This document shows, one piece after another, positions 4,058-16,373 of a DNA stretch of 19,746 nt (positions are counted from its first letter, which is position 1; every line of letters begins with the position of its first letter). The translations under genes and the position numbers were made by a program. Source of the DNA: Pseudomonadota bacterium (GTDB lineage: Bacteria > Bdellovibrionota_B > Oligoflexia > Oligoflexales > RGVZ01). The stretch lies in NCBI GenBank assembly GCA_041178085.1, contig JBEGVZ010000087.1, positions 1 through 19,746 on the forward strand, written 5' to 3'. The notes under the pieces were generated by a model, which saw only the letters and a program-made list of their open reading frames with translations, had not been told where the DNA came from and did not search any database.

Positions 4058-4954
4058 TCATCCTGCCGGGAGCAGGGCGTCCTTGATCCGCCGGTTCATC
4101 AAATTGCGCGACAACCAAAAAGTCTCTGCCAAACGCGCGGCCAGGTCATGCGCCGGATCCGAGGCTGCAATCTCGCGCCGGACGAGGGACAGCGGGGCCA
4201 ACAACTCCAGCGCGAAGACATTTGCCTCGACTGCCGCAAGATGATCGTTGAGGGGAAGCGGCAAACTGCTGCGCCCGGGATTGGCGATGTCCTTGAGCAG
4301 TCCCGGGGCCATGCCGCGCGCCGAGTCAAAGCGGACATACGGCCGCTGATTTCGCAACTCCGGAAGATAAAACGGCGGTGACTCGAAGCCGCTTGCCTGG
4401 TGGACTGCCCTGACCTTGTCGACGATTGCCGGCCGGTTGATCCGGCAATGCTGCCTTGCCAGCAGTTCACGTTCTGCCGTCCACTGCCCGGGATGGGCCT
4501 GACGAAGCGATTCAATCGCTGCCTCAACGACCGTTGGATCCAACTCGAAAGGGCCGTAGCCTTTGACCTCGCACACACCCTCTTCCGCATCCATGTCGCC
4601 GCTGATCACCGCGGCGACGATCCATTCCTGAACGGATAATTTTGCCGCGAGGGCGCGGAGTGCATTGAGCGAGCGGATCTGCTTGCGCCCTTTTTTCCAG
4701 TGCGTGCACTCGGCCGGGTCAAGTTCAAGCAACTCCCCAACGTGCTGATCCATGATCCGCACGCCTGGGCGACGCAGACCAAGAACCATTCGACAAAACT
4801 GGAACAACTCCATTGAGGCCCGGAAGCGCCCTGCCGCCGGGTCTGCTTCTGGCACCCGGACAGCCCCGGACACATCCCCTGAAAGGCCTGCGGGACAGGG
4901 TTTTTGAGGCTTCGATGAAATCGCTGGAACGTCTGGTCCGGAAACTTCGGGCAT
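4058..4954 (-). CDS. XRE-like HTH protein with a degenerate ImmA/IrrE-like C-terminal domain
   Basis: AGGAG RBS before ATG 4954. HTH-like segment DQHVGELLELDPAECTHWKKGRKQI. The C-terminus EANVFALELLAP...LAETFWLSRNLMNRRI resembles ImmA/IrrE tails. No HExxH motif is present. Confidence 0.6.
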   Translation of the reverse strand: MPEVSGPDVPAISSKPQKPCPAGLSGDVSGAVRVPEADPAAGRFRASMELFQFCRMVLGLRRPGVRIMDQHVGELLELDPAECTHWKKGRKQIRSLNALRALAAKLSVQEWIVAAVISGDMDAEEGVCEVKGYGPFELDPTVVEAAIESLRQAHPGQWTAERELLARQHCRINRPAIVDKVRAVHQASGFESPPFYLPELRNQRPYVRFDSARGMAPGLLKDIANPGRSSLPLPLNDHLAAVEANVFALELLAPLSLVRREIAASDPAHDLAARLAETFWLSRNLMNRRIKDALLPAG

Positions 4955-8681: not shown

Positions 8682-9794
8682 ATGAACTTAACGGGGATCA
8701 ACCTCACCAGCGCAATCAGGAAGCTGCGTCCAAGGCGTTCTCGCCCACCTCGCGGCACGCCCCCTGGGACCGTGCGTGGTGTTCAAACAACCAGTCCGAC
8801 CAAAGTGGACGTCATGGCCTATGGTCACGCTGGTTTCATTGAGAAGAGTGAACCCGCAGATTCAGACATCCGGGAACTCCTCAAGTCCCACGAAGTCGTC
8901 TGGATCAACATCACCGGCTTGACCGACGTCGAACGCCTGAAAAGCGTGGGCAAGATCTTTGACCTTCACGCACTCGCCCTGGAAGACGCCACCAACCTTT
9001 ACCAGCGCCCAAAGATCGAAGATTACGGGCACTATTACTACGTGGTCGCACGCATGGCCGACGTGCAGCGGCAGGAAACGTCGCTCGAGCAATTCAGCCT
9101 TTTTTTCGGCAAGGGTTTCGTCCTGTGCATCCAGGAGCACCCCGGAGACTGCTTTGACCCGATCCGGGCGCGCATCCGCGGCGGCAAGACTTCCCTCTAT
9201 GCTCACGGATCTGACTACCTGGCTTCGGCCTTGCTGGACGCTGTGATCGACGACTTCTTCCCCCACGTGGAACGGATCGCCGACCGCCTTGAATTACTGG
9301 AAAACGAGATCATGAGCGCGCACGGCAAAGACACCGTGACGAAAATTTACGGCATGCGTCAGGAACTGCTGCAGATCCGCAGGGCGATTTGGCCGTTGCG
9401 CGACGCGCTCGGAATCATGCACCGCGAACAATCCCCGCTGGTGGACGCGGGTACCCGCTTTTACTTCCGGGACTGTTATGATCACACCGTACAGATCATC
9501 GATGCTTTGGAATCCTACCGCGATCTTGTCTCCAGCATGATGGAAATCTATCTGTCGAGCGTCAGCTACCGCCTGAACGACATCATGCGTACACTGACCG
9601 TGATCTCGACCCTGTTCATGCCTCTGAACCTCATCGCTGGAATTTACGGCATGAACTTCCACACTGAAAAGTCGCCCCTTAACATGCCAGAGCTGTCTTG
9701 GTACTACGGCTATCCATTCGCACTTGGGCTCATGGCGGCGCTGGTTCTTGTGCTGATGGTTCTTTTCCGTTGGCGTGGCTGGCTTAAAACATGA
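8682..9794 (+). CDS. corA: Magnesium/cobalt transporter CorA
   Basis: GxPPGT N-terminus, VWINITGL, LHALALED, QRPKIEDY, YFRDCYDH, the GIYGMNF signature, MPEL loop and two C-terminal TM helices. Confidence 0.96.
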   Translation: MNLTGINLTSAIRKLRPRRSRPPRGTPPGTVRGVQTTSPTKVDVMAYGHAGFIEKSEPADSDIRELLKSHEVVWINITGLTDVERLKSVGKIFDLHALALEDATNLYQRPKIEDYGHYYYVVARMADVQRQETSLEQFSLFFGKGFVLCIQEHPGDCFDPIRARIRGGKTSLYAHGSDYLASALLDAVIDDFFPHVERIADRLELLENEIMSAHGKDTVTKIYGMRQELLQIRRAIWPLRDALGIMHREQSPLVDAGTRFYFRDCYDHTVQIIDALESYRDLVSSMMEIYLSSVSYRLNDIMRTLTVISTLFMPLNLIAGIYGMNFHTEKSPLNMPELSWYYGYPFALGLMAALVLVLMVLFRWRGWLKT

Positions 9795-9818: not shown

Positions 9819-11873
9819 ATGGCCAGATCCAGTCGACTGAATTTTGAGTTGCTGAAGGTTGCGCGCGGATCGCGGGCGCGGCTGACGCGGTTTCGTACCT
9901 TGCACAATGAAGTCACGACACCGATCTTCATGCCGGTCGGGACCTTTGCGACAGTCCGCACCCAGCCCCTCGATGTGCTGGATGAACTGGGCGCGCAGGT
10001 GCTGCTTGCCAACACTTTCCACTTGATGCTGCGCCCCGGGCCGGAACTGTTCCGCAAGTTTGGCGACATCCACCGCTTCATGCGCTGGCCCAAGTCGGTC
10101 CTGACAGACTCCGGCGGGTTCCAGATTTTCTGCCTGCCAGAAGCCCGCCAGATGACGGAGGAAGGCGCGCGTTTCCGTGCGTACACCGACAAGCGCGAAA
10201 TCCTGCTTACGCCAGAACTCAGCATCGAAATGCAGAAGACCATCGGTAGCGATATCATGATGGTCCTCGACGAATGCATCCCCAGCACCTCGCCCCACGA
10301 AGTGGCTCGCGCCGCCATGGAACGCACGCACCGCTGGGCAGCCCGCTCGCTCGCGGCCCGCGGGGAATCTCCCCAGTCGATGTTCGGCATTGTGCAAGGC
10401 GCCTGCTACCCGGATTTGCGACAGGAAAGTGCGCGCGTGCTGACCGACATGCCGTTTGACGGTTTCGCCATTGGCGGGCTTGCGGTCGGCGAGACTTCTG
10501 CGGAACGCGAGGACTCAACAGCAATCGTAACCGAATTCCTGCCACATGACTTGCCTCGCTACCTGATGGGCGTGGGCACGCCGCGCGATTTGCTGGAGGC
10601 AGTCCACCGCGGCGTGGACATGTTCGACTGCATCCTGCCGACATCGCTCGCGCAGCAGGGAGTTGTCTTTACCTGGAATGGCAAGATTGACCTGCGACGC
10701 GGACGTTACCGCATGGACGACGTTGAGCTTGATCCAGATTGCCACTGCAACGTCTGCCGCAACTACAGCGTGGCCTACCTGCACCACCTGCAACGGGTGA
10801 AGGAACCCCTGGCCTGGCAATTGCTGGCCACCCACAACCTTACTTTTTACATGAAGCTGATGGCGGGCATGCGCGCAGCGATTGCTGAAGACCGCTTCCT
10901 TGAATTTTACCAGCAGCACCGCGAAAACCTTGGGCGTTCGGACGGCCTTGATCCACCGAAGCGCAAACCGGCGCACAAGAAAAGCAAGCCGCCGCCCCGC
11001 CAGCTGGGTCGCTTCGAAGTGATCGAACGTCAGATGGAAACTGGTGACGGTCAGCAATGCGCGCAGGGCAGCATCCGCGACCTGGCTTCGGGCGAAGTGA
11101 TGCACTCTGTGAACGACCCGCAAGAAGAAGCTAGGCGCTTGTACATCGAGCAATCCGGTCTGCCCGCGCTGATGCAGGAAAACACCACCGAACCTCTGGT
11201 CGTGTGGGATGTCGGACTGGGCGCAGGCTTTAACGCCATGGCGCTGATCCGCGCCTACGAGGAACTCGTGGAACAGGGAACGACCCTTCGTCCGCTGCAT
11301 CTTTGCAGCTTCGAAATCGACCTTGATCCGCTGCGTCTTGCCATAAGCAATCCATGGCTTTTCCCTCACGCGCGCCACCCAGGACCGCACCTGATCGCAA
11401 GTGACCGCGTCTGGCAGTCAAAAAAACTTCCTGTGAAGTGGCAGCTTTTCGAAGGTGACTTCCTTGCGGAACTCGACCATGCGCCAGCGCCACGCGTCAT
11501 CTTCCACGATCCGTTTTCGACCAAGGTCGATGGCCCCTTGTGGCACCTTGAATGCTTCAAAAGGATCCATGGCGCCGCCACCGGCGAGGACTGCATGATG
11601 CTGACGTATTCGCGCAGCACGGCCATTCGTTCGGCCATGCTTGCCGCAGGGTTTTACGTAGGTGCCGGACTCCCTTCAGGTCCCAAACCGGAAACCACGA
11701 TCGCGGCAAAACGGGGCTCGGATATCACCCGCTGTGGCCGTCCGTTGCTGGGTGCCGACTGGCTGGCCCGCTGGGAACGCAGCCAAGCCCGCTTCCCGGC
11801 TGACATAACATCCGAAAAGTTCACGGAATTTGAGGGGTTGATCAGGACGCACCCGCAGCTCTATGATCATTGA
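9819..11873 (+). CDS. tgt: tRNA-guanine transglycosylase fused to a C-terminal MnmC/MnmD-type SAM methyltransferase (684 aa)
   Basis: Tgt part: TPIFMPVGT, NTFHL, DSGGFQ, LDEC, IVQG, GGLAVGE, RYLMGVG, DMFDC and Zn site CHCNVC...H. After a Lys/Pro linker (~10941-11005) comes the methyltransferase part: MHS, DVGLGAGFN, SFE, IFHDPFS...LW, TYSRSTAIRSAMLAAGF, GPKPE. Confidence 0.93.
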   Translation: MARSSRLNFELLKVARGSRARLTRFRTLHNEVTTPIFMPVGTFATVRTQPLDVLDELGAQVLLANTFHLMLRPGPELFRKFGDIHRFMRWPKSVLTDSGGFQIFCLPEARQMTEEGARFRAYTDKREILLTPELSIEMQKTIGSDIMMVLDECIPSTSPHEVARAAMERTHRWAARSLAARGESPQSMFGIVQGACYPDLRQESARVLTDMPFDGFAIGGLAVGETSAEREDSTAIVTEFLPHDLPRYLMGVGTPRDLLEAVHRGVDMFDCILPTSLAQQGVVFTWNGKIDLRRGRYRMDDVELDPDCHCNVCRNYSVAYLHHLQRVKEPLAWQLLATHNLTFYMKLMAGMRAAIAEDRFLEFYQQHRENLGRSDGLDPPKRKPAHKKSKPPPRQLGRFEVIERQMETGDGQQCAQGSIRDLASGEVMHSVNDPQEEARRLYIEQSGLPALMQENTTEPLVVWDVGLGAGFNAMALIRAYEELVEQGTTLRPLHLCSFEIDLDPLRLAISNPWLFPHARHPGPHLIASDRVWQSKKLPVKWQLFEGDFLAELDHAPAPRVIFHDPFSTKVDGPLWHLECFKRIHGAATGEDCMMLTYSRSTAIRSAMLAAGFYVGAGLPSGPKPETTIAAKRGSDITRCGRPLLGADWLARWERSQARFPADITSEKFTEFEGLIRTHPQLYDH

Positions 11874-13196
11874 ATGTCCACTCTGATTGTCGAAGCGCTC
11901 GTCATCCTGGTCCTGATCGCCTGTAATGGCGTACTCGCCATGTCTGAAATCGCCGTCATTTCGGCGCGCAAAGCGCGCCTGCAGCAGATGATCCAGAAAG
12001 GATCCCATCGCGCCCAGGTGGCGCTGGATCTTGCCAACACCCCGACTTCTTTCCTTGCCAGCGTGCAAATCGGGATCACGATGATCGGCATCCTGGCCGG
12101 TGCGTTCGGGGGCGCTACGATCGCAGAAGAATTGGCTCCGTTCCTAAAGGCAGGCGCAACCCCGGATGGAATTATCCACGGTTATGCCGAAGAAATCGCC
12201 TTCGGGATTGTGGTGGTGACCATCTCGATCTTGTCACTTGTTCTGGGTGAACTCGTCCCGAAACGCATGGGCCTCAACCACCCGGAAAGCATCGCCGTCA
12301 ACGTCGCGCTGCCCCTGAAGTTTTTTGCACGCGGCACTAAACCCCTCGTCCGCGCCTTGTCATGGTCGACTGACCGGATCCTCACCCTGCTTGGAGCCAA
12401 CCAGGTCGCCCGCGATGAAGTCACGGAAGAAGAAGTGAAGCTGATGATCGAGCAGGGAGCCGCCGCCGGGGTCTTCCAAAAGGAAGAAGAATCGATCATG
12501 AAACGGGCCCTCCGCCTTGGCGACCGCCGCGTGGATGAGTTGATGACGCCGCGGCTCAAGATCGTCATGCTGGACCTTGCCGATTCTTTTGAAGACAACA
12601 TGCGCAAAATGATGGCCAGCCCCCACTCTTACTTTCCTGTTTATGAAGCCAACCCGGACCAGGTAACCGGGCTCGTTTCGGTGAAGCAGCTCTGGCAAGT
12701 ACTGGCATCCGGTAAACGCCCGGAATTGCGCCGGATGTTGATCGACCCGCTTTTCGTGATGGAAACGACGCCATCACTCAAGGTCCTTGAGATGTTCAAA
12801 TCATCGGGAAAACACCTTGCGATCGTGATCGATGAATATGGCGGCACGGCAGGGATCATCACCCTGATCGATGTCCTCGAGGCTATCGTTGGCGACATCC
12901 CGGACGACGAGGCTAAAAGCGAGAAATCGGCCGTCAAACGCAAAGACGGAACCTGGCTGGTTGAAGGCATGATCGGAACCCAGGACATGAAGGAGCTTTT
13001 TCAAATCCATGCTTTGCCGCATGAAAAAGACGGTGGCTACCAGACCCTGGGCGGCATGATCATGATGTGTATCGGGCGGATCCCGCGAGAGACAGACGTG
13101 GTATTATGGCAGGGCTGGCGTTTTGAAGTCATCGACATGGACGGTCACCGGGTCGACAAGGTCCTGGTTACGCCGCCCGACCGGAGCAAGTCGTGA
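11874..13196 (+). CDS. HlyC/CorC (CNNM, CorB/TlyC-like) family protein: DUF21 + CBS pair + CorC_HlyC
   Basis: NGVLAMSEIAVISARKARL, VQIGIT, VLGELVPK, MTPR, HSYFPVY, VIDEYGGTAGIITLIDVLEAIVGDIPD, YQTLGG, MDGHRVDKV. Confidence 0.94.
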   Translation: MSTLIVEALVILVLIACNGVLAMSEIAVISARKARLQQMIQKGSHRAQVALDLANTPTSFLASVQIGITMIGILAGAFGGATIAEELAPFLKAGATPDGIIHGYAEEIAFGIVVVTISILSLVLGELVPKRMGLNHPESIAVNVALPLKFFARGTKPLVRALSWSTDRILTLLGANQVARDEVTEEEVKLMIEQGAAAGVFQKEEESIMKRALRLGDRRVDELMTPRLKIVMLDLADSFEDNMRKMMASPHSYFPVYEANPDQVTGLVSVKQLWQVLASGKRPELRRMLIDPLFVMETTPSLKVLEMFKSSGKHLAIVIDEYGGTAGIITLIDVLEAIVGDIPDDEAKSEKSAVKRKDGTWLVEGMIGTQDMKELFQIHALPHEKDGGYQTLGGMIMMCIGRIPRETDVVLWQGWRFEVIDMDGHRVDKVLVTPPDRSKS

Positions 13197-14572
13197 TGCG
13201 CAAGATCCAAGAATTGGCAGGTTTTTCTGCGTCTGGTGTTTCGCTGGCTGGCATCGCTCTTGCCAGTGTTCTGGGCCTTGCCTTTGCGTGTTCACCTAAG
13301 GGTTCAAACGACTCAAATTCGGCAAGCCTTGCGGACATGGCGGGCTCAGTCAAAAGCCGCACCGGCAGCCAGGCTGACATGGCCAACTGGACCGTGATGT
13401 CCCTGGAACGCCAGACAAATTTCGGGCGTTCCGATTTGATCAGCGAAAGCGGCACCTTCATGCTGACCAATGTCCGGAGCGACCGCCCCAGAACCATTGC
13501 CTTGCTGTCTCCAGATCATCTGTTGAGGTCTGTCCTGTCCATTCCGACCAGTAGCCTGGAATTCATCAACCAGTATTTCCTTGGCACTCCGAGTCAACTT
13601 CCACCCCTGTTTGAACGCGGGCCCATCATGATCTTCGGTTCACTCGAGGGGATCACACCGTTTGATGACAGGATCAAAAGTGACAAGAAAAACGGCGTGC
13701 CGAATGCAGCCTATGGCGACAACGGCTACGGCCTGATCGACAACAGCTCTAATGTCGACTTGACTGGATTGCCCGCAGTTTTCAACCCGGACCGGAATGC
13801 CAACGGCAAGCTCGATATTTTTGAAACCGATGTCGATAGCGATGGCAATGGCGATGCCTCACAGGGTACGGGCCCCAACTACTTCAGTGAGGGACTCGAT
13901 TACGCTGCCGTACAATACGAACTCTCTACCGCCACTGGTGGAACCTCGACTGCCCAGGTGACCTTCGTCGCAAAGGTAAAGGCCGGGCTTGACGTGAAGG
14001 ACGTCAAGATTCACGGTTCGTCCACTCTGACCAGCGGGTCAACCACCCTGGTCGACGGAAACTCAACGGCGTGGGACCTGACGCTGGCGGATGACGGCAA
14101 GAGCGATGACGGCGTTGCTGCGGACGGCATTTTTGCCCGCCGCGTTACCTTGCAGAACGCCACGGCGCTGAAGGGCTACGAAGTGATCCTGTTTGAGCCC
14201 CGCCGTGCTGACGGTGCAGAGAATCCGGGAGCCCAACCCATTGCCGGAAGTAAATTTATCGTGACGGCGCCGCCGGTTTCGCTGAGCGCACTCAGTGCGC
14301 CCCTGTGGGATCCGGTAACCCGCACCGTGAACCGTGTCGGCAGCCCATTTGGTACGGTGACGGACTACACATGGTCAGTGACCGTTTTTGACGCCAATAA
14401 CCGCCCCGTTTACAGCTCAGCAGCAATCGCCGGGTCAGAGGACACCGTCGTTCTACCCGACAATGCCTTTGATACCATCGGCACATTTACCGCCAAGGTC
14501 ACAGCCAAGTGCCAGGAGCAGGTACCCGGTTATTCATTTTTTGTCGTGACCAGCCCAAAGGTGTCCCTCTGA
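13196..14572 (+). CDS. Lipoprotein with Asp/Gly Ca-binding-type loops and a choice-of-anchor-X-like motif
   Basis: ATG overlaps the upstream stop (TGATG). Lipobox LAFA|C. DRNANGKLD and DVDSDGNGD at 13790-13855; LADDGKSDDGVAADGIF at 14084-14134; beta-rich C-terminus. Confidence 0.75.
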   Translation: MRKIQELAGFSASGVSLAGIALASVLGLAFACSPKGSNDSNSASLADMAGSVKSRTGSQADMANWTVMSLERQTNFGRSDLISESGTFMLTNVRSDRPRTIALLSPDHLLRSVLSIPTSSLEFINQYFLGTPSQLPPLFERGPIMIFGSLEGITPFDDRIKSDKKNGVPNAAYGDNGYGLIDNSSNVDLTGLPAVFNPDRNANGKLDIFETDVDSDGNGDASQGTGPNYFSEGLDYAAVQYELSTATGGTSTAQVTFVAKVKAGLDVKDVKIHGSSTLTSGSTTLVDGNSTAWDLTLADDGKSDDGVAADGIFARRVTLQNATALKGYEVILFEPRRADGAENPGAQPIAGSKFIVTAPPVSLSALSAPLWDPVTRTVNRVGSPFGTVTDYTWSVTVFDANNRPVYSSAAIAGSEDTVVLPDNAFDTIGTFTAKVTAKCQEQVPGYSFFVVTSPKVSL

Positions 14573-14666: not shown

Positions 14667-15314
14667 ATGTTTGCTAAACGCATTATGGCCGTCGCCACTG
14701 CCGCTGCTGCCATTTCCCTCGCGTCCACCAGCCTGTTCGCCGCCGAGCTGACCGTCGGCTCACTGGCCTTCAGTTCCCAGAAGATCAAAGCTGACAAGAC
14801 GGATGCCGGGTCCAAATCCGTGTTTGGTGTGAACGGCCGCTACCATGACACCCTCAGCCAGACCATGAGCTGGTACGCCATTGGTGGCATCAAGGCCAAC
14901 AGCTACTCTTCGGGGGCCAGCGGCCTTGCCCCGGACAACTCCATGGGCATCATTGTCGGCGGCGGTGCCCGCTACTACTTCAGCCCCTTCAGCCCCAGCG
15001 CAGTGCCTTTCGGCTTCATCGGCGGGTCGTTCAACGTCGACTCCGATGCTACCTTTGACGGCAATGGTTACACGGAAACTACCAAGAACGGCATCTACCA
15101 TAGCGCGGGACTCGGCCTGCGAATGGCGCTCGATGAAATGCTGTTTTTCGAACTGGAGTCGGCATTCTACGAGACCCCCCTCTATGCAGTTGAGAAGACC
15201 ACCAGCGTCACAGCCGCAGGAGAGAGCAAGTCCGAAAGGACCACCATGCAGCTCTTCGCCCAGACGTTCGGGCCGTTCAACAATGTGTTTTTGAGCTTAG
15301 GGGTTCGCCTCTAG
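14667..15314 (+). CDS. Outer-membrane beta-barrel protein (about 8 strands, OmpA/OmpW-like size)
   Basis: GGGAG RBS; signal peptide ..SLFA|AE; amphipathic strands (VFGVNGRY, VGGGARYYF, PFGFIGGSF, AGLGLRM); C-terminal strand VFLSLGVRL. Confidence 0.8.
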   Translation: MFAKRIMAVATAAAAISLASTSLFAAELTVGSLAFSSQKIKADKTDAGSKSVFGVNGRYHDTLSQTMSWYAIGGIKANSYSSGASGLAPDNSMGIIVGGGARYYFSPFSPSAVPFGFIGGSFNVDSDATFDGNGYTETTKNGIYHSAGLGLRMALDEMLFFELESAFYETPLYAVEKTTSVTAAGESKSERTTMQLFAQTFGPFNNVFLSLGVRL

Positions 15315-15340
15315 AACTGCTCTACTTGGCTGCGCCTCAC
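15312..15340 (+). repeat. Terminal inverted repeat at the transposase 3' end
   Basis: TAGAACTGCTCTACTTGGCTGCGCCTCAC versus the reverse complement of the other end, TAAAACTGCTCTCCATCCCTGCGCCTGAC. Confidence 0.8.
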
Positions 15341-16278
15341 GCGCTGAGTGACATACATTCGAGAGGCCAGACCCGCCATTGAGCCGGACTGGCCTCTCGT
15401 GGCCTCCCCTCTATCTCCTCCCGCATTTCGATCCTCGTATTATGGGCGCACACGTAAAGATCCAGCCGGCACTGCAGCCGGTCGATTCGTTTGTTGGTGC
15501 ACCACGTCCGGCGAGCCAGGCACTTCAAGTTGTCTCGCACCATGGCGCAGGTCTGATTCAAGGAAAACAGGGGGTCTCTGCCACCGGCCTTGAGTTCTCC
15601 CAGGCCGACCACACATCCACGGCGTCCCTTAAACGTCTTGTGCACAGCCGTGGGCAAATGCTTCTTCACAAGATCCGGATACCGGGGGCACTGGTCCGAT
15701 TTAACAATAAGACCGGGCTTTGCGACTCCGGCGATATCCCGTAAAACCGCAGATAAAGCTGACTTTCTGTCGTCTCTTCGCTTGCCGTAGCGGCGGCGGG
15801 AAATCTTTGCCAGCCGCCCCTTCGCCGGCATGCTGGCGGCCTTCAGGCGCAAAATTATCCGTGTTGGCTCCTGGACGGCCGCGGCAATCGCGACGGGTTT
15901 GCATTTGGTGTGTTCAGAGGTTTCCATCTCGTCAAAATCAGCAGTTTCAACCGAGCATTTCATACGGAAAAGCCTCCGATTCTGATCAGAATTCGCAAAC
16001 TTAGCCATGAGGACAAGTTTTCTGGCGACGGTGATCTGCGTGGTGGCACAAAGAAGCGCGATGCGGCGCTGCGAAACGCCGGAAACAATCAAATTGAAGA
16101 TGGGACGGTGAAGATCAGGTCGCCTCTGACGGGCATTCAGGGTGCCATTGGTTTGCGAGAACCAGACGTGACATTTTTTGCAGAGGAATCGCTGGCTCCT
16201 TCCGCCGGGGATGGTCCGATGAGGAAAAAAACCTTTTCTTATGGCGCACTTGGAACTTCTGCACTTCGGGCACTCCAT
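15337..16278 (-). CDS. IS1-like single-ORF transposase (Zn ribbon + HTH + DDE-type fold, D-D-N)
   Basis: CPKC...CKKC Zn ribbon; HTH GVSQRRIALLCATTQITVARK; FDEME and KSDQ acidic motifs. LNQTCAMVRDNLKCLARRTWCTNK aligns by eye with the IS1 InsB segment [30 protein letters not shown] RBS. Confidence 0.85.
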   Translation of the reverse strand: MECPKCRSSKCAIRKGFFPHRTIPGGRSQRFLCKKCHVWFSQTNGTLNARQRRPDLHRPIFNLIVSGVSQRRIALLCATTQITVARKLVLMAKFANSDQNRRLFRMKCSVETADFDEMETSEHTKCKPVAIAAAVQEPTRIILRLKAASMPAKGRLAKISRRRYGKRRDDRKSALSAVLRDIAGVAKPGLIVKSDQCPRYPDLVKKHLPTAVHKTFKGRRGCVVGLGELKAGGRDPLFSLNQTCAMVRDNLKCLARRTWCTNKRIDRLQCRLDLYVCAHNTRIEMREEIEGRPREASPAQWRVWPLECMSLSA

Positions 16279-16344
16279 GGCTCTCCCCCTTTAGAAGGAA
16301 GCACAATGGACCGGAGCTAAACGGGGGATGAAGTGACATCCGAA

Positions 16345-16373
16345 GTCAGGCGCAGGGATGGAGAGCAGTTTTA
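16345..16373 (-). repeat. Terminal inverted repeat at the transposase 5' end
   Basis: GTCAGGCGCAGGGATGGAGAGCAGTTTTA is the inverted counterpart of 15312-15340. Confidence 0.8.

Follow-up and report, generated by a model that had tools for sequence, protein, structure and literature searches.

The window, i.e. the whole stretch of 19,746 nucleotides analysed here (contig JBEGVZ010000087.1), contains a single 684-aa open reading frame (ORF), which runs on the plus strand without an internal stop through a tRNA-guanine transglycosylase (Tgt) and a methyltransferase (Table 1). In the Pfam search, TGT was matched over residues 19–370 with 463 bits and Methyltransf_30 over residues 547–631 with 37.6 bits. 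The Tgt half is of the bacterial type, since it scores 434 bits with the Tgt profile TIGR00430 (cut-off 307), whereas the archaeal TgtA profile TIGR00432 gives 145 bits, below its cut-off of 350, and DpdA is not matched at an E value of 0.001. With the MnmC2 profile NF033855 (cut-off 136), the fusion reaches 59.7 bits, and the MnmD-like paralogue of the same genome is also below the cut-off. The FAD-oxidase domain of bifunctional MnmC is not among the families matched by the 684-aa protein in the Pfam and curated profile searches. An earlier reading of this DNA from its letters alone (the original prediction) had described a complete Tgt joined to an MnmC-type methyltransferase in one ORF and lacking that oxidase domain, and the ORF and its Pfam domains bear this out. 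The Tgt motifs that it quoted are in place (D97 in DSGG, C153 in LDEC, V223 in GLAVGE, D270 in DMFDC, and the zinc site C308/C310/C313/H339), and the methyltransferase motifs DVGLGAGFN and HDPFS lie exactly where it had put them.

The possibility that the fusion is an assembly artefact can be ruled out. With residues 396–684 as the query, both Pfam domains are present in 119 of the best 120 of 1122 homologues, and among 104 genomes from the same phylum, 30 have an open frame of 651–736 aa across the fusion match. It had been supposed that such fusions may already be in databases, and a preprint indeed devotes one sentence to TGT-MnmC2 fusions, which it counts among four other fusion types without giving a function (bioRxiv 10.1101/2023.12.21.572861). 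These fusions have the same domain pair, PF01702 with COG4121/MnmC2; the main-text passages of that preprint make no mention of second-Tgt status or of split forms, and its supplements may hold more. In agreement with the earlier remark that no characterised function is known, no functional study of the fusion was found in the literature searched, which mostly leaves subscription journals outside its coverage. The fusion is real, catalogued and functionally uncharacterised, and a new product and a new target are plausible for it. A wider scan gave at least 599 matching stretches, 80 of which were retained and come from Bdellovibrionota/Oligoflexia, Verrucomicrobiota, Binatia, Spirochaetia, Myxococcota-type bacteria, Gammaproteobacteria and Alphaproteobacteria. 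Profiled across genomes, the fusion is widespread over several phyla but patchy. Within the family of genome G146 (71 genomes), a fusion-sized PF05430 match, with the fusion inferred from frame length, occurs in 21 genomes, only weak other matches occur in two and none in 48; the gene is therefore accessory and patchily distributed.

By its sequence, the Tgt of the fusion is probably not an ordinary Tgt acting on G34 of GUN anticodons. We aligned 105 fused and 31 canonical Tgt domains from the same genomes (four short rows were dropped) and compared 73 rows of the fusion type, here called Tgt2, with 38 canonical rows in E. coli numbering. Like the bacterial Tgts of E. coli and Z. mobilis, Tgt2 keeps the catalytic D89 and D264 and the zinc ligands (73/73), as well as C145, L215-A216-V217 and E219 (73/73), which we take to form the preQ1-type pocket, preQ1 being 7-aminomethyl-7-deazaguanine. 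D251 (Z. mobilis D267) is also kept in all 73 rows, and K39 is either K or R throughout. The loop that follows the nucleophile differs, reading PTSLAQQG in the fusion and PTRNxRNG in canonical Tgt; R270 and N274 are found in 38/38 canonical rows versus 0/73 Tgt2 rows, and the substitutions in Tgt2 are V266 to I, R270 to A/Q/S/N, R273 mostly to Q, N274 to Q/R and N288 to R. The I101/K103 loop is altered as well; in the E. coli enzyme, I101 stacks on A37 (PMC13416341). Tgt2 shares 43–49% identity with canonical Tgts, differs from them in often being joined to a methyltransferase, and forms one clade apart from them, with a support of 0.989 in a tree that includes 55 of the 109 fused rows and an ultrafast bootstrap value of 100 in a tree of 41 sequences. 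A divergent Tgt (40% identity), which is the only Tgt match in genomes G008 (L230:2886-4049) and G009, is sister to Tgt2 in the maximum-likelihood tree.

The predicted model of the methyltransferase half is confident (predicted local distance difference test score 92.6). In common with MnmC2/MnmD (the Aquifex DUF752 protein, PDB 3vyw, and E. coli MnmC's N-terminal domain), it has the same fold, motif I, the acidic motif II, the DXF motif and the substrate-stacking Tyr. The residues responsible for catalysis and for binding of S-adenosylmethionine (SAM) have been defined in MnmC2 (PMC3527978, PMC3648344); G466, G468 and N472 of motif I (GXGXN), E499 of motif II and D564 of DXF are present in 106/106 fused rows, D547 of motif III in 98/106, and F566 and Y597 of motif VI in 104/106. 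Different from MnmC2/MnmD, the proline of DXFXP and the NP that follows are replaced, with T568 in place of the proline and D571 in place of the adjacent Asn (Aquifex N200) in this fusion. The Pro and the Asn are each present in 28 of 29 MnmD-like/MnmC rows; among the 106 fused rows, Pro is outside the two commonest residues at its position and the Asn is found in 16. In a FastTree phylogeny rooted on four MnmC domains, the fused domains cluster with a stand-alone class that has the same tail (0.908), apart from 23 of 25 MnmD-like genes (0.969). The label MnmD used in the original prediction is too simple for this domain. In G050, G051, G053, G054, G056, G027, G029, G058, G064 and others, each genome encodes three or four genes of the MnmC2 family, in fused, stand-alone fusion-type and MnmD-like forms.

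Table 1. Features of the fusion gene and its immediate neighbours in the window.
Feature	Position	Strand	Details and basis
Tgt2-methyltransferase fusion gene	9819..11873	+	684 aa; ORF and profile searches
Tgt2 domain, bacterial-type tRNA-guanine transglycosylase of a separate clade	9819..10943	+	aa 1-375; profiles, alignment, trees
DSGG motif	10107..10118	+	D97 = E. coli D89; alignment
Nucleophile D270 and following loop I272/S276/Q279/Q280	10626..10658	+	E. coli D264 and V266/R270/R273/N274; alignment; nucleophile per PMC13416341
Zinc site C308, C310, C313, H339	10740..10835	+	invariant in 111/111 rows
Basic, proline-rich linker	10944..11006	+	aa 376-396; sequence
MnmC2-fold SAM-dependent methyltransferase	11007..11870	+	aa 397-684; profiles, model, fold match
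Motif I, DVGLGAGFN	11208..11234	+	aa 464-472; alignment
Motif IV, DPFS in HDPFS (aa 563-567, 11505-11519)	11508..11519	+	D564 = catalytic Asp of DXF, 106/106 fused rows; PMC3527978
corA, upstream neighbour	8682..9794	+	Pfam
CNNM/CorC-HlyC transporter, downstream neighbour	11874..13196	+	begins straight after the fusion stop; Pfam

The two partners also exist apart. In one family, f16, Tgt2 and the fusion-type methyltransferase are encoded by separate, unlinked genes, which are the first to branch in both trees; in the maximum-likelihood tree, the remaining Tgt2 group is supported at only 64%. Across the 104 genomes of the phylum, both partners are found in 61 (30 of them with intact fusions) and neither in 32, with most f16 genes classed by identity and length, and ten Tgt2 and five methyltransferases classed by sequence. 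Of the unfused genomes with both partners, 24 belong to f16, so the tally reflects few independent events. Some stand-alone Tgt2 genes nest among the fusions, an arrangement that suggests the methyltransferase domain was lost repeatedly. Two f16 genomes (G093 and G099; L253 and L254) have a further divergent MnmC2-like gene that is not of the fusion type.

The host genome, which is 96% complete, carries, besides the fusion, a canonical tgt that lies at the end of a contig, along with queA, queG, mnmE, mnmG and a stand-alone MnmD-like gene, so both halves of the fusion are extra copies there; of the companion genes that the original prediction had proposed to look for, a second tgt, queA/queG and a separate MnmD-like gene were thus found. 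Neither queC nor queF was found by profile search in this genome, so the host would salvage a queuosine precursor, and it carries a transporter of the Vut_1/YhhQ type. Its 42 tRNAs and one tmRNA include nothing evidently unusual. The profile searches were extended to 80 fusion genomes (30 of the own phylum and 50 of 79 from the wider scan, with long contigs favoured), most of which are metagenome-assembled and some of which are kin rather than independent. At least 78 of them have two or more Tgt matches, which is in line with Tgt2 being almost always an extra copy, unlike canonical Tgt. queA is present in 76 and queG in 71 (66 above the cut-off), and a QueF match in 47 (six weak). Replacement of the QueA/QueG route by the fusion is excluded, given that tgt, queA and queG are retained by almost every genome with the fusion; the QueA/QueG-independent end product that had been envisaged can stand as an addition to that route, not as a substitute for it.

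This coexistence bears on where the fusion acts. The original prediction had placed it at position 34 of tRNA-Asp/Asn/His/Tyr, which may be the wrong place, since the Tgt2 loop is rebuilt. The same two steps could still take place on the ordinary G34 of these tRNAs, with N-methyl-preQ1 competing with queuosine in one tRNA or under one condition. The TIGR00430 score above the cut-off, the intact preQ1 pocket, the K/R at position 39 and the retention of R273 in nine of the ten split f16 copies all agree with this; however, hardly any genome lacks the full canonical route, and the loss of residues that are invariant in 38/38 canonical Tgts would be left unexplained. We consider this alternative unlikely.

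What the methyltransferase modifies is best judged from genomes in which the usual substrate pathway was not found. By profile search, MnmG is found in none of the 18 genomes of the family of G128 (minimum completeness requested, 90), and the whole fusion is present in 4 of 17 genomes checked in this family (G231 was left out). MnmE above the cut-off is found in none of these four carriers, nor in G131. The four MnmG-less carriers have intact methyltransferase motifs, and the ratio of nonsynonymous to synonymous substitution rates (dN/dS; Nei-Gojobori method with Jukes-Cantor correction) is 0.16–0.34 for the methyltransferase versus 0.18–0.21 for Tgt2; the methyltransferase is under purifying selection in these genomes. 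Since MnmE and MnmG were not found there, the usual substrate of MnmC2, 5-aminomethyluridine at position 34 (nm5U34), should be absent. No other argument against nm5U34 as the substrate is as strong as this retention, which rests mainly on one lineage. The genomes of this family measure 3.4–6.9 Mb, a size at which the MnmG-less state is unusual.

We propose, at slightly less than an even chance, that Tgt2 places preQ1 at an RNA guanine outside the standard site, where the second domain N-methylates it. In the first step, Tgt2 would exchange guanine for preQ1 via D270, as its conserved pocket suggests. The site would be one other than U33-G34-U35, most simply an anticodon loop of the form U33-G34-N35 with N not being U, because the loop that presumably reads U35 is rebuilt while the residue that presumably reads U33 (E. 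coli D251) is kept; such a site is what the changed loop, taken together with the intact canonical route, suggests. In the second step, D564, like its counterpart in MnmC2, would activate the primary amine so that it attacks SAM, to give 7-(methylaminomethyl)-7-deazaguanosine. Methylation would be the finishing step, which some lineages may perform in trans or may have dropped. The earlier idea that the fused domain methylates preQ1 installed by Tgt gains support from the selection in the absence of detected MnmE/MnmG and from the matching basal splits; its ordinary G34 site has become doubtful. It is fairly probable that N-methyl-preQ1 is made in RNA by one route or another. With somewhat more reserve than for the two steps themselves, we suggest that several phyla share a second lineage of bacterial Tgt that puts a 7-deazaguanine at a non-GUN anticodon or in other RNA, where its partner methylates it.

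A precedent exists in phages, where DpdA2 and DpdM make N-methyl-preQ1 in DNA (PMC10516641). The order of events is like that of the proposed route, a transglycosylase inserting preQ1 and N-methylation coming next; unlike the fusion, these enzymes act on DNA, and DpdM is an unrelated DUF3109 metal-binding protein (PMC10516641). Apart from phage DNA and synthetic chemistry, no N-methyl-preQ1, and in particular none occurring naturally in RNA, was found in the literature searched, most subscription journals lying outside it.

The two steps might also run in the reverse order, with the methyltransferase acting on free preQ1 and Tgt2 inserting a base that is already methylated. E. coli Tgt presumably accepts amine-substituted preQ1. 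The same enzyme is described as highly promiscuous (PMC13416341), and Tgt2-specific changes are located close to the base pocket (positions 152, 156–157, 195–196 and 230). Yet C153 and V223 are invariant, the characterised MnmC2 enzymes act on tRNA (PMC3527978), and a free methylated base would probably reach the canonical Tgt too. We regard this order as highly improbable.

Insertion by Tgt2 followed by N-methylation has a number of observations against it. The roles of Z. mobilis R286, R289 and V282 in reading U35 and of D267 in reading U33 are our assumption, for which no literature passage was found. The best fold match of the methyltransferase, Aquifex MnmC2, is a proven nm5U34 methylase, and even the C-terminal tail of the domain aligns with the C-terminal module of that enzyme. 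MnmE and MnmG are each found in 75 of 80 fusion genomes (a set that overlaps with the one profiled above), and both are missing in three; the carriers without them are metagenome-assembled genomes of one lineage, plus G131. Profile search found MnmM in 0/80 fusion genomes, and the fusion is the sole PF05430 match in 35. These last two points and the fold match, together with the complete set of catalytic MnmC2 features and the survival of Tgt2 alone, would suit a chain that combines two wobble enzymes acting independently, in which the methyltransferase is an MnmD that converts 5-aminomethyl-2-thiouridine at position 34 (nm5s2U34) to its methylated form, mnm5s2U34, and Tgt2 works by itself. 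Such an MnmD is difficult to reconcile with the selection that maintains the methyltransferase in genomes where neither MnmE nor MnmG was found. It would moreover coexist with MnmD-like genes (a further PF05430 match, in some cases weak, is present in 45 of the 80 genomes) and with a full bifunctional MnmC in four; most of the G146 family has no PF05430 match at all, and the stand-alone paralogue of the host fits NF033855 better than the fusion does (115 versus about 60 bits). This explanation therefore seems distinctly unlikely.

Imperfect co-occurrence of the partners counts against the proposed two steps as well. Within the 104 genomes, Tgt2 is found without an intact fusion-type methyltransferase in nine, and the methyltransferase without Tgt2 in two (85–87% complete); about a dozen genomes have a stand-alone fusion-type methyltransferase as well as an intact fusion. 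A methyltransferase that is found without Tgt2 or in addition to an intact fusion may have another job. In four genomes of the same genus as the host (G073–G076; L200–L203), the fused domain is cut at the catalytic motif with loss of E499; a stand-alone partner is present in three of the four, and dN/dS of the inactivated remnant is still low, about 0.1 in the closest pairs. Tgt2 might thus modify a new RNA site while the methyltransferase acts on some other amine, located in another nucleotide of that RNA, on a different kind of 7-deazaguanine or in a small molecule, and the repeated domain loss and the presence of several fusion-type copies in one genome would be in keeping with that. However, neither a candidate substrate nor a conserved neighbour was found, and preQ1 carries CH2-NH2, an established methylation target of this fold. 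We rate a separate substrate as rather unlikely.

If insertion of preQ1 by Tgt2 and its N-methylation are correct, N-methyl-preQ1 would be a new natural RNA modification, at a new site and parallel to queuosine, and the rule that limits bacterial Tgt to G34 of GUN tRNAs would be broken. An MnmC2-fold enzyme would have exchanged its uridine substrate for a deazaguanine, in convergence with phage DpdM. Many annotations would have to be corrected, because Tgt2 passes the tgt equivalog cut-off and is hidden under the name tgt. RNA-labelling methods could also gain a second, independent tag from a Tgt whose sequence preference is different.

No conserved operon partner was found, the largest neighbour cluster covering 9 of 109 loci; a tRNA lies near the fusion at four of the 109, a different one each time. 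The corA and CNNM/CorC-HlyC neighbours recur beside the fusion in the same genus and are not conserved elsewhere. No riboswitch or other Rfam family reaches its gathering score in the window. Among phage records there is no full fusion, and among plasmid records no match to the methyltransferase. Elsewhere in the window, a 298-aa protein without a family match is encoded at 4058–4954 (minus strand), and a 459-aa protein with a short choice-of-anchor X match only at 13193–14572 (plus strand). A transposase ORF resembling the IS1 family (15337–16278, minus strand; NF033558, 34 bits, below the cut-off) lies inside 29-nt imperfect inverted repeats that delimit positions 15312–16373.
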